Part shown: in pieces, positions 28,933-31,864 of the stretch | Layout: the number at the start of each line of letters is the position of its first letter | Numbering within the stretch: position 1 is the stretch's first letter | NCBI GenBank assembly: GCA_937903155.1 | Contig: CALCZU010000131.1 | Location: 46,704 to 110,703, forward strand | Reading direction: 5' to 3' | DNA from: an uncultured Bdellovibrionales bacterium | GTDB lineage: Bacteria > Bdellovibrionota > FAC87 > UBA2466 | DNA length: 64,000 nucleotides | Program-made: the position numbers and the translations under genes | The notes under the pieces: model-generated | The model's input: only the letters and a program-made list of their open reading frames with translations | Databases searched by the model: none | Told to the model about the DNA's origin: nothing

Positions 28933-29859
28933 TTGTCATCGAACGAGATCTCAGGTTATGTTCCGGCGATGCAAAAGGGATTAGAACTTCCATTTCTTGG
29001 GTTTGGGGCCGGCCTTCGGCACGAACACTTTGATGATTTTTTAAAACATAAAAATCAAGTCATCCAGTGGGTAGAAGTCGTGACCGAAAATTTTCTGCCA
29101 TGGGAAGATGAGGTCCCCAGATATCCCTACAAGATTTTAGAATCGATTCGGAAGGACTTTCCAGTCGTTTTTCATGGAGTTTCACTTTCGATTGGTTCGG
29201 TGGATCCGATCAGTCCTTCTTACTTAAAAAGATGGAAGCAACTCATCTCTGAATTTAACCCCGCATGGGTTTCTGACCATTTGTGCTGGACCGGCGTTAA
29301 GAATGAAAAACTGCATGATCTTTTTCCTCTTCCTTACTCCAATGAGGCGTTGTCGTGGGTGGTCGAAAGAATTTCGCGCGTCCAGGAATTCTTAGGACGA
29401 CGAATTCTCATCGAAAATGTTTCAAGCTATGTAAGCTTTTCCGACGACGAAATGACCGAATGGGATTTTTTGGCAGAAGTCGCAAAACGGTCTGACTGCG
29501 GCATTCTCCTCGATGTGAATAATATCTATGTCTCCAGCCGCAATCATGGCTTTGATCCGCTTGATTATTTAAAAGCAATTCCGAAGGATAGGGTAGGGCA
29601 GATTCACGTCGCCGGACATACCGATAAGGGCGACCACTGCATTGATACGCATGACCACCCTGTGTGTGATTCGGTTTGGGATCTTTACCGCTGGGCGGCC
29701 AAAAATCTTCCGGAGGTCTCTGCGATGATCGAATGGGATGACCGAATTCCGACGCTCGAGCGACTCGAGGAAGAAGTTTCAAAGTTGAAAAGGATTTGGA
29801 AAGAAGAAAATGATAGAAAATCATCCTCAAAATTTGTCGAAGCTACAATCGGACTTTAA
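28933..29859 (+). CDS. DUF692 / MNIO (multinuclear non-haem iron oxidase, MbnB/TglH family) TIM-barrel enzyme
   Basis: Family motifs in order: GFGAGLRHEH, WVSDHLCW, LIENVSSY, LLDVNNIYVS, QIHVAGH. Confidence 0.85.
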   Translation: MSSNEISGYVPAMQKGLELPFLGFGAGLRHEHFDDFLKHKNQVIQWVEVVTENFLPWEDEVPRYPYKILESIRKDFPVVFHGVSLSIGSVDPISPSYLKRWKQLISEFNPAWVSDHLCWTGVKNEKLHDLFPLPYSNEALSWVVERISRVQEFLGRRILIENVSSYVSFSDDEMTEWDFLAEVAKRSDCGILLDVNNIYVSSRNHGFDPLDYLKAIPKDRVGQIHVAGHTDKGDHCIDTHDHPVCDSVWDLYRWAAKNLPEVSAMIEWDDRIPTLERLEEEVSKLKRIWKEENDRKSSSKFVEATIGL

Positions 29860-30580
29860 AGATTTAGTTCTCGAAGAGAAGAACAAGCTTGCGACCCATA
29901 AGCCTGAGTTTCTCAATGACTCCGAGACAGTCGATTGGAAAAAACGCTTAGGCATCTATCAGTACGCGGTTCTCGAAAGGCAAATCGATTCGTTAAAAGA
30001 CGATTTCGAAATCACCGAAAAAGTGATGGGAAAAGAGCCTTTTCGGAGGATGGTCATCGCCTGTCTAAAAAAATATCCTTCGACCTATCACAGTCTTGCC
30101 GAATTAAGCCAAAACGTGCCTCAGTTTCTCACGGAGTTTGAAGAGACAAAAACCCAACCGTGGCTTTACGAGCTAGCGGAGCTCGAATGGCGTCTGATCC
30201 GAGCCTCCTTGAGCGAGAACTTCATCGTTAACAATCTTTCAGAACTCCAAAACGAAGAAAACCAAGGAAAAGACCTGACGTTTCTTTTAAATCCTTCCAT
30301 CGATTTGTTTTTCTCAAAGTATTCGGTTCAAAATTTTTTCGACGATCCAAAAGCGCCCAGAGCGGAATCCGCTTCTTACTTACTTATTTTCGAAAAAGAT
30401 CGATCAGGGGTTTACGAAGTGCTCGACAAAAACGAGTGGACGCTTCTGAAAGAATTAAGAACCGATATTCCGTTGAGTAAACTCAATCAGGTTTTTGCGA
30501 GCTTAAACGTCGACGAAGCAAAACTAGGCGAATATTTTATGAAATGGTCGAATGCCGGTTTTATCTCCGCCTTTAAATGA
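29810..30580 (+). CDS. DUF2063-family partner protein (MbnC/TglI/BufC-like)
   Basis: N-terminal pattern LQSDF…RLGIYQYAVL matches DUF2063. It sits immediately downstream of the DUF692 gene and overlaps it (a TTG at 29837 would give a 23-bp overlap), the arrangement seen in RiPP-modifying MNIO systems. Confidence 0.65.
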   Translation: MIENHPQNLSKLQSDFKDLVLEEKNKLATHKPEFLNDSETVDWKKRLGIYQYAVLERQIDSLKDDFEITEKVMGKEPFRRMVIACLKKYPSTYHSLAELSQNVPQFLTEFEETKTQPWLYELAELEWRLIRASLSENFIVNNLSELQNEENQGKDLTFLLNPSIDLFFSKYSVQNFFDDPKAPRAESASYLLIFEKDRSGVYEVLDKNEWTLLKELRTDIPLSKLNQVFASLNVDEAKLGEYFMKWSNAGFISAFK

Positions 30581-30706
30581 CACGCAATCCTAAGAACGCT
30601 TGAGTTCTTTTGTTAATGGATTGCTCCACCTGATCGGTAATTTTTGCTACAGATAGTTATACTTAATCCAAAAGTCTTTACTAAACCAAGCATCATAAGG
30701 AAAAAA

Positions 30707-31864
30707 ATGAAAAAATCGGCACACGCATTTTTTGTATTTCTCTTTTTTGCACTAGGGTCTTCTGTTCATGCAAAACAACTCTATGTTGACTCCCTTTACA
30801 GTGGCGTTAACGATCTCAAAAATCTCACCGATCAGGGATTTGAAGTCGCTGGGGTCGATCTCGAAAGAAGCGTCGTGACCCTCTTGATGGACGAAGAGGA
30901 TTTAGTCCTTACCCGTTCACTCGATATCATCGGAACACGCACATTAGTTGCTCCCGATTCTCAATACAAAAAACCTACAGATATCGAAAAAATTCTCGCG
31001 GCGACGGAAGAAAAGTATCCAGGGCTAGCAAAAATTGAAGTCATCGGTACTTCAAACGAAGGCCGTAAAATTCTTGCCGCTCACTTAACCAATCACTCTA
31101 ATCGCGCTGAAAAACTTTCAGTCGTATTCGATGCGATGCACCACGCTCGCGAAGTGATGACTCCCGAAGTGGCACTCGATATCGTCGACTACTTAACGAG
31201 CAATTACCAAACCGACGCCCAAGTTAAAAAATGGATGGATAGTTATGATGTCTGGGTCGTTCCCATGTTGAATCCCGACGGAAACAATAAAGTTTGGACG
31301 AAATCCTCGATGTGGAGAAAAAATACGAGAGGCGGATACGGAGTGGATATCAACCGCAATTATCCTTTTGCTTGGAATACCTGTAATGGTTCGTCGGGTA
31401 ATAAAAACGCAGATGATTATCGCGGCGATAAAGAAGGTTCAGAACCCGAAACCAATGCGTTGATGGATCTCGTTAAAAAAGTGAACCCGATGTTCAATGT
31501 TTCGTATCACTCCTTCTCTGAAATCGTGATTTATCCATTTGGTTGCAAACCGAAACATATTCCTGAGTCGCATAAAGCCATTTACGAAGGCATTGGAAAA
31601 GAATTGGCGAAAACACTCGTGAGAGATTCGGGGAGTGGAACGTACACTGCAGGAACTTCCTATGAGCTTCTTTATAGCGTGGATGGCGGATCAATTGATT
31701 GGATCTACAATCAAGACAAAACGATGGCTTTTGTCATCGAGATGAATTCGACGTCTCAAGGATTTCAGCCATCGTACAAAAACTGGCGCGACAAAACGAT
31801 TAAGAAACAACGCCCAGGTTGGATGTACATCTTGAATCGAATGAGTGGTCCCGGAATTAAATAA
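30707..31864 (+). CDS. secreted M14-family zinc carboxypeptidase
   Basis: Start moved to MKKSAHAFFVFLFFALGSSVHA (signal peptide, AAGGAAAAAAATG). HxxE zinc motif (MHHAREVMT) and downstream His typical of M14. Confidence 0.75.
   Translation: MKKSAHAFFVFLFFALGSSVHAKQLYVDSLYSGVNDLKNLTDQGFEVAGVDLERSVVTLLMDEEDLVLTRSLDIIGTRTLVAPDSQYKKPTDIEKILAATEEKYPGLAKIEVIGTSNEGRKILAAHLTNHSNRAEKLSVVFDAMHHAREVMTPEVALDIVDYLTSNYQTDAQVKKWMDSYDVWVVPMLNPDGNNKVWTKSSMWRKNTRGGYGVDINRNYPFAWNTCNGSSGNKNADDYRGDKEGSEPETNALMDLVKKVNPMFNVSYHSFSEIVIYPFGCKPKHIPESHKAIYEGIGKELAKTLVRDSGSGTYTAGTSYELLYSVDGGSIDWIYNQDKTMAFVIEMNSTSQGFQPSYKNWRDKTIKKQRPGWMYILNRMSGPGIK

Follow-up and report, generated by a model that had tools for sequence, protein, structure and literature searches.

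What does a peptide-modifying maturase act on when no gene for its peptide lies beside it? The question is raised by a pair of genes in a 64,000-nt stretch of DNA from an uncultured Bdellovibrionales bacterium (contig CALCZU010000131.1), hereafter called the window, whose positions serve as coordinates throughout. Profile searches identified three plus-strand genes within 28.9–31.9 kb, which encode a multinuclear non-haem iron oxidase (MNIO; DUF692), a DUF2063 partner protein and an M14 carboxypeptidase (Table 1). An earlier note on this DNA had described the first two as maturases of peptides that are ribosomally synthesised and modified after translation (RiPPs), without an adjacent precursor and had linked them functionally to the peptidase. 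Our comparison with related loci indicates that there is nothing exceptional about the enzymes, whose family is well described. What is unusual is that a lineage situated among canonical clusters no longer has the precursor and DoxX genes, although selection still maintains its enzyme pair. On balance, we lean towards a maturase that now serves a substrate encoded elsewhere in the genome.

A maturase pair of the bufferin type

The product of the first gene matches PF05114 over the whole TIM-barrel domain (E 3.6e-104; 348.1 bits against a threshold of 25), with residues 24–288 of the open reading frame (ORF) spanning profile positions 2–261 of 263. It also exceeds the cut-off of the NCBIfam BufB equivalog NF050167, 'MNIO family bufferin maturase' (353.8 vs 310 bits). 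With the next-best NCBIfam model, HvfB, it scores 253 bits where 360 would be required, and the scores obtained with MbnB (69 bits), ApyH (98 bits) and ChrH (47 bits) all lie far under the respective cut-offs. In an alignment of seven sequences, the motif columns HGVSLS, SDHL, ENV, LDVNN, AGH, DTHD and EWD are invariant, and they align with the solved structures 3BWW and 8HCI and with MbnB; the roles of individual residues as iron ligands rest on published structures.

The substrate site of the enzyme gives a hint as to what it may recognise. A study of related enzymes places a Phe after the catalytic Asp in Lys-Cys (EGKCG) enzymes and an Asp in Cys-Lys enzymes (the D249/F250 site of FonB), and in the model proposed there, the Asp at this Phe-to-Asp site touches the substrate Lys (PMC13097082). 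The signature sites of the window MNIO read MIEWDDRIP and GLRHE. Its second Asp (EWDD) is shared with one of its two closest relatives, L003, and with all canonical relatives that have a Cys-Lys precursor (E[WR]DD), while the other close relative, L002, has EWDE and is thus acidic at the same site, too. The Lys-Cys type enzyme 3BWW, by comparison, has ERDF, and it carries Arg-Arg where the window MNIO has Arg-His. The signature thus predicts that the window enzyme is still built for a Cys-Lys (BufA2-like) substrate.

The second gene overlaps the 3' end of the MNIO gene by 50 nt, and both the length of this overlap and, almost entirely, its DNA sequence are preserved in L002 and L003; the translational coupling that the earlier note had described is supported. 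The encoded protein matches PF09836 (DUF2063) at 40.4 bits, above the gathering score of that family (27.2), so that, together with the BufB score of the enzyme, the maturase pair can be regarded as real. Full-length BLASTP alignments connect it to the partner proteins of canonical clusters (E 2e-27 for L004 and 9e-24 for L014), and because these alignments extend through the C-terminus, the protein may have the two-domain fold of PME-type 1 partners, with a helical DUF2063 domain at the N-terminus and an RRE-type C-terminal domain. A search of the PDB returned no sequence match for the partner, 3DEE included, and an AlphaFold2 model built from a two-sequence alignment reached a mean pLDDT of 39.5, which is too low for conclusions on the fold.

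Absence of the precursor gene in a clade of three

The canonical arrangement is seen in eleven more distant relatives (L004, L006 and L008–L016), whose MNIOs are 44–63% identical to the window enzyme. In each of them, a gene for a Cys-Lys precursor with a Sec signal ("GCKGK", BufA2-like) lies immediately 5' of the MNIO gene, whereas none of the three loci of the clade that includes the window has such a neighbour (11/11 outside the clade vs 0/3 inside). The precursors of the distant relatives contain 2 to 21 Cys residues in C-K-G contexts (for example, ...GKDGCKGKNGCKGK...), and three of them exceed the cut-off of the BufA2 equivalog, with 82–97 bits vs 60. The partner gene is followed by a DoxX gene in L004, L012 and L013 and by none in L014–L016. 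By sequence, the window MNIO is nested among these canonical Cys-Lys bufferin clusters, and the loss of the precursor would therefore be recent and datable within the family. As a side observation, the UBA6601 contig L011 contains masked bases (N) at 7321–7690, 5' of a long precursor with EGKCG/CKGK repeats and 21 Cys residues.

The close relatives of the window enzyme are the MNIOs P0002 and P0003, which are encoded on contigs L002 and L003 and show about 75% identity to it; for enzymes of canonical clusters, values of 55–63% were obtained. They were the only proteins above 63% identity in a search of 5.8 billion protein clusters, and a scan of genome contigs for further clade members returned only relatives of at most 57% identity. 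A protein search with the DUF2063 partner retrieved only itself and its L002 counterpart, and a metagenome scan with the three DUF2063 sequences of the clade yielded no further members.

On L002 and L003, the MNIO–DUF2063 pair is directly followed by a gene for a short-chain dehydrogenase/reductase (SDR), which starts 12 nt past the DUF2063 stop codon in L002 and overlaps this codon in L003; these two SDRs show 78% and 76% identity, respectively, to the one encoded in the window. Past the SDR gene, L003 runs on into nuoA–nuoH, as does the window, and the NuoH proteins of the two loci are 87% identical. Genes for an M14 peptidase, a precursor and DoxX are absent from both contigs. The gene 5' of the MNIO gene differs in all three loci, with rluA in the window, a DUF4423 helix-turn-helix gene in L002 and a RAYT-type Y1 transposase gene in L003, and nothing beyond the annotated genes is conserved across them.

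To quantify selection, we compared the proportions of non-synonymous (pN) and synonymous (pS) differences across the three lineages. Synonymous differences are saturated (pS 0.74–0.89), and pN amounts to 0.16–0.19 for the MNIO, 0.31–0.36 for the DUF2063 partner, 0.15–0.17 for the SDR and 0.09 for NuoA/NuoH. Both the MNIO gene and the DUF2063 gene are under strong purifying selection.

Two kinds of genes recur around these loci or on related contigs. RAYT-type (Y1/IS200-like) transposase genes are found beside the MNIO operon at 6620–7321 of L002 and 2732–3352 of L003, and DUF4423-type helix-turn-helix proteins are encoded at 3243–3695 of L002 and 3632–4450 of a further contig, L017. The latter, along with the abundance of secreted hydrolases, would fit a Bdellovibrionota-like source.

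Search for a precursor or substrate in the window

The earlier note had found no precursor gene next to the pair but had allowed for one below its ORF cutoff of 60 aa. Our inspection of ORFs down to 20 aa revealed no small Cys-containing ORF with a signal peptide in either flank, nor did the 66-nt gap 5' of the pair or the 126-nt gap 3' of it contain any Cys-bearing plus-strand ORF. Thus, the absence of an adjacent precursor was confirmed, and a flanking precursor hidden under the cutoff became very improbable. A crude screen of ORFs of 25–260 aa for a signal peptide and Cys residues returned about ten secreted proteins, none of which has repeated CK/KC motifs. DoxX, NrsF and extracytoplasmic function (ECF) sigma factors were not detected among the window proteins scanned, and searches for Rfam families and tRNA genes in the window gave no matches. 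Elsewhere in the window, a secreted protein of 198 aa (8267–8863) contains a CLNCH sequence, which conforms to the CXXCH haem-c motif, and has no family match.

The best candidate for a trans substrate within the window was a protein of 131 aa with a Sec signal, whose gene is preceded by an AGGAGG ribosome-binding site. It matches the HvfA model NF050137 (KCGExKCG_twice) with an E-value of 0.014 and 15.1 bits against a cut-off of 19.5. A word-based search with this protein returned only the protein itself, and an exhaustive HMMER search of 1.84 billion representatives identified a single homologue, with 41% identity. This homologue keeps the four Cys residues (C-x8-C and C-x4-C) and reads WCRGDACGP at the motif, so that the K-C-G/C-G-K flanks are lost, and its 8.7-kb contig contains no MNIO gene. 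We have downgraded the candidate on these grounds. Its Cys pattern is more suggestive of a small secreted protein with two disulfides than of a maturase site.

Cys-Lys dyads are present in the M14 carboxypeptidase, as FGCKPK, and in the S1-like protease, as AAHCKKSG. The Cys of the former stands in place of a Tyr in the YPYGY segment of carboxypeptidase T, inside the folded catalytic domain. The dyad is also followed by Pro (GCKPK), a residue that the related enzyme FonBC does not tolerate in its motif. The Cys of the S1-like protease follows the catalytic His, a position at which Cys is normally disulfide-bonded in trypsin-fold enzymes.

The neighbouring carboxypeptidase and dehydrogenase

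A secreted M14 peptidase does lie 3' of the pair, as previously reported. The protein matches PF00246 with an E-value of 7.2e-68, among proteins of solved structure, carboxypeptidase T comes closest to it (PDB 3qnv, E 2e-41), and its N-terminus, MKKSAHAFFVFLFFALGSSVHA, is a typical Sec signal peptide. It contains the stretches HHARE, NRNY, YHSF and VIEM, which we take to be M14 catalytic motifs. The S1 protease noted upstream is likewise present; its N-terminus resembles a signal sequence, and its match to Trypsin, although weak, exceeds the threshold.

The proposal that these peptidases are functionally linked to the pair fared differently. In tblastn searches of 14 related MNIO loci (about 170 kb, with two short duplicate contigs set aside), none of the window's M14, S1-like, lipoprotein, RluA-family and DUF2237 proteins had a counterpart, and Pfam annotation placed an M14 gene beside the MNIO gene in 0 of 8 related loci. 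The earlier note had itself named a lack of co-occurrence in related genomes as the result that would speak against its proposal, and this is what we find within our sample (M14 and S1 in 0/14 loci). Consistent with this result, Peptidase_M14 and adh_short both stay below 5% co-occurrence among 13,976 MNIO loci (PMC12452194, Table S1).

Since none of the 14 related loci has the M14 gene, it is most simply read as a local, lineage-specific insertion into an ancestral MNIO–DUF2063–SDR–nuo arrangement, and the simplest assumption is that it arrived together with its own terminator and a repetitive extragenic palindromic (REP)-like element. Of the two arms of this palindrome, one fits the pattern exactly and the other has 1 mismatch, and a partial copy is located at 48153. 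The palindrome may mark the point of rearrangement, and in combination with the RAYT genes of the relatives, it suggests a REP/RAYT-associated rearrangement of the locus. The SDR of the window, for which NCBIfam yields only generic SDR matches, is consequently parted from the pair by the M14 gene, the strong terminator and 212 nt.

Gene starts, transcription and other features of the window

The features discussed here are listed in Table 1. The longest MNIO ORF begins with TTG 28933, but the start codon is most likely ATG 28969, 36 nt further inside, because this choice agrees with the identical database protein P0001 (296 aa, 100% identity) and with the N-termini of the relatives. The divergent rluA-family gene described in the earlier note is thus indeed present, although the gap that separates it from the MNIO gene measures 66 nt rather than 30. 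The RluA-family protein scores 146.7 bits with TIGR00005, under the cut-off; its gene lies beside the MNIO gene in no relative searched by tblastn and is a neighbour outside the maturase system. Sigma-70-like hexamers (TTGTCA-18 nt-TATGTT) are found at 28933–28962, ending 7 nt 5' of the MNIO start codon, which has no obvious ribosome-binding site in front of it, and the mRNA of the MNIO operon may be leaderless.

For the M14 gene, ATG 30707, which lies behind an AAGGAA ribosome-binding site, is the most likely start, rather than TTG 30644, leaving an intergenic gap of 126 nt to the pair. The plus strand contains no terminator-like site at 28969–31864, and no promoter is predicted between the pair and the M14 gene. 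The M14 gene could thus be co-transcribed with the pair in the window. The terminator at 31886–31922 closes the MNIO–DUF2063–M14 unit.

Table 1. Features of the 64,000-nt window that bear on the maturase pair
Feature	Position	Strand	Match or remark
Sec-signal protein, 131 aa, with TKCGWGSCGK	17492..17887	-	weak substrate candidate
Lipoprotein with GKSCGS	26892-27296		
Signal-like S1/trypsin-type protein, 249 aa	27433..28182		Trypsin match, 24.1 vs 20.6 bits
RluA-family pseudouridine synthase, divergent	28144..28902	-	PF00849, E 4.6e-31
MNIO (DUF692), BufB type	28969..29859	+	PF05114, NF050167 MNIO_BufB
DUF2063 / PME-type 1 (BufC-like) partner	29810..30580	+	PF09836
M14A carboxypeptidase, secreted, carboxypeptidase T-like	30707..31864	+	PF00246
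Strong bidirectional intrinsic terminator	31886..31922	+	15-bp stem, 8 GC pairs, T-run
REP-like imperfect palindrome	31942..32029	.	between terminator and SDR gene
Classical short-chain dehydrogenase/reductase (SDR)	32077..32799	+	PF00106, E 1.6e-48

Several observations concern other parts of the window. Two tandem sets of genes for the membrane arm of NDH-1 (nuoA-H-J-K-L-M-N) extend over 33532–41009 and 41019–48103; there are no peripheral-arm genes between them, and the copies of the nuoM region share about 70% identity across 162 nt. A co-directional cluster on the minus strand (19877–24901), which may represent a small-molecule pathway, encodes a HisC-like aminotransferase, an O-methyltransferase and a 393-aa protein in which an N-terminal cupin domain is combined with a C-terminal domain rich in ExxH; two more of its proteins match no family. 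Finally, a stretch of 931 nt (51202–52132), located 5' of a gene for a FecCD-type ABC permease, contains no ORF of at least 90 aa and has no Rfam match.

Discussion

Our results address how a bufferin-type maturase pair may be maintained once its precursor gene has disappeared from the locus. Taking all observations together, we think it somewhat probable that the pair is a functional bufferin/captophorin maturase working in trans, on a Cys-containing substrate that is exported and whose gene is unlinked. In this scenario, the BufB-class MNIO would work with its DUF2063 (PME-type 1, putatively RRE-containing) partner, which, by analogy to known systems, would dock a precursor with a Sec signal in the cytoplasm. 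The iron enzyme could then use O2 to convert specific Cys residues to 5-thiooxazole, with a mass change of -4 Da each, prior to export, and the product would be a periplasmic peptide binding metal (copper). With the precursor gene and the DoxX gene gone from the locus in this small lineage, the enzyme would depend on such a substrate from another part of the genome. The thiooxazole chemistry and the binding of copper are carried over from characterised relatives (PMC11626156; PMC13097082), and the cytoplasmic timing, the metal-binding role and the unlinked substrate are likewise suggested by analogy. A Sec-exported substrate is a reasonable assumption, since DUF2063-type (PME-type 1) partners correlate with Sec-signal precursors (PMC12452194); the proteases nearby lend it no support. 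Moreover, bufferin precursor genes that are unlinked from MNIO genes are known, so that service in trans is possible, and the MNIOs recorded elsewhere without a recognised adjacent precursor (see below) also speak for this reading.

Several points weigh against this interpretation. Six-frame searches of the window, L002 and L003 with regular expressions for DUF2282-like (C[YF]G...NDC, HSCxG), EGKCG/KCG and GCKGK motifs detected no precursor, with a DnaJ zinc finger as the sole match of the precursor motif searches, and a profile hidden Markov model built from nine precursors gave a best E-value of 2 against all six-frame fragments. No substrate was thus found in the 64-kb window or on the contigs of the relatives, and action in trans is reached by exclusion, because, for this genome, the search for a substrate covered the 64 kb of the window. 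The partner, in addition, scores 36.8 bits with the HvfC/BufC equivalog NF050145, whose cut-off is 142, and it is only ~30% identical to the partners of canonical clusters, so that its recognition specificity may have shifted. Lastly, the clade has three known members, and the case for conservation therefore rests on a small sample.

How well do other explanations account for the same observations? The substrate could be a full-length secreted protein encoded nearby, namely the M14 peptidase, the S1-like protease, the lipoprotein or the 131-aa protein, with the thiooxazole formed in a protein and not in a peptide. It has been argued that proteins, too, may be modified by MNIOs (PMC12452194), all four candidates possess a Sec or lipoprotein signal and a Cys beside Lys or Gly, the M14 gene follows the pair without an intervening terminator or predicted promoter, and the 131-aa protein shows the weak HvfA-motif match described above. 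However, the four genes occur in no related MNIO locus, with L002 and L003 lacking M14, and the matches to Cys-Lys motifs were picked post hoc. The individual sites are also at odds with such a role, given the position of the M14 Cys within a folded domain and next to a Pro that FonBC would not tolerate, the disulfide that we presume for the AAHC Cys of a trypsin-fold protease, and the disulfide-like pattern, lost flanks and MNIO-free 8.7-kb surroundings of the 131-aa homologue. We therefore regard this explanation as unlikely. A shade less probable still is the idea that MNIO, DUF2063 and SDR form a three-gene module with a new function, in which the SDR might, for example, reduce the MNIO product, or that this module acts on a non-canonical substrate, such that a switch to another class of substrate would lie behind the missing precursor. 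It draws on the finding that both close relatives have the SDR orthologue (76–78% identity) right next to the DUF2063 gene or overlapping with it, while the 5' neighbours differ in the three loci, and on the lack of such an SDR gene beside canonical relatives. Yet the separation of the SDR gene in the window implies that tight linkage is dispensable, and the MNIO–DUF2063–SDR–nuoA synteny shared by the window and L003 makes simple inheritance of the adjacency possible. Furthermore, the SDR matches are generic, adh_short is not enriched near MNIOs, and the enzyme has kept the substrate-site signature of its peptide-modifying relatives.

The two remaining alternatives appear far less probable. 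The pair could be a decaying, functionless remnant of a bufferin cluster, as the absence of both precursor and DoxX and the presence of RAYT genes and REP-like repeats around the locus in this clade might suggest. The intact reading frames in three lineages with saturated synonymous sites, a pN of the MNIO comparable to that of the SDR, the full set of family-invariant residues and the preserved 50-nt overlap make this highly improbable. Least credible of all is an adjacent precursor that was overlooked because it is very short, starts in an atypical way or lies nested within a different frame. Methanobactin-type precursors can be shorter than 30 aa and often remain unannotated. Many unannotated ORFs have also been noted near MNIOs (PMC12452194), but all ORFs of at least 20 aa on both strands were inspected, the gaps lack a Cys-bearing plus-strand ORF, and nothing else is conserved in the three loci.

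Among described systems, bufferin 2 or Cys-Lys captophorin clusters (bufA2-bufB2-bufC2) are closest to the window locus, with which they share an MNIO at the BufB level (the window enzyme is 50–63% identical to those encoded beside BufA2 or BufA2-like GCKGK precursors), the EWDD site and an overlapping DUF2063 partner gene. The window differs from them in that it has no bufA gene 5' of the enzyme gene, although the bufA-first order has been described as strictly conserved (PMC12452194), no DoxX gene and a divergent partner (~30%). DoxX (BufD) is found in about 40% of bufferin loci and is thus frequent but not obligatory. In addition, no ECF sigma/NrsF regulator was seen in the 64 kb of the window, and the downstream genes encode an SDR and, additionally, an M14 peptidase. 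The oxazolin (HvfABC) and fontiphorin (FonABC; Lys-Cys, EGKCG repeats) systems have the same MNIO and PME-type 1 architecture, and the conversion of Cys to 5-thiooxazole is presumably common to them and the window pair. Their enzymes, however, have Phe and Arg-Arg where the window MNIO has Asp and Arg-His, in line with its HvfB score (253 vs 360), and they act alongside an EGKCG precursor that the window lacks. MbnBC, TglHI, ChrHI and ApyHI resemble the pair in having the MNIO fold and in requiring a partner, but they use other partners (MbnC etc.) and leader-type precursors without signal peptides and are distant by score.

MNIOs without a recognisable adjacent substrate gene, with or without a partner, have been recorded before. 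They include adjamnio-II/III, about 4,000 enzymes of the bufferin mega-cluster that lack a recognised adjacent precursor (PMC12452194), and Bdellovibrio bacteriovorus HD100, which is tabulated with one MNIO, one DUF2063 protein and none of three precursor families. The adjamnio-II/III enzymes form separate small clusters with peptidyl-tRNA hydrolase and HExxH neighbours, unlike the window enzyme. In the surveys, precursor-less loci are tabulated rather than analysed, and the HD100 pair was compared by its table entry only. Our literature search returned nothing specific on orphan MNIOs or Bdellovibrio DUF692 proteins.

The locus also provides a warning for genome mining, because neighbouring secreted peptidases can mimic tailoring enzymes when they are mere insertions. 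Comparing two or three close relatives quickly tells the two apart. Bufferin/captophorin clusters count as one of the most widespread kinds of RiPP system, and the lineage described here constitutes a natural test of whether their maturases can act in trans and of what the partner protein recognises. It is conceivable, if improbable, that the pair has been freed from precursor linkage altogether and acts on dispersed exported substrates or whole secreted proteins (possibly by placing a metal-binding thiooxazole in a hydrolase such as M14 with GCKPK or S1 with HCKK), or that it has acquired a new chemistry together with the SDR. If this were true, MNIO-dependent modification would extend from RiPP peptides to general protein maturation.

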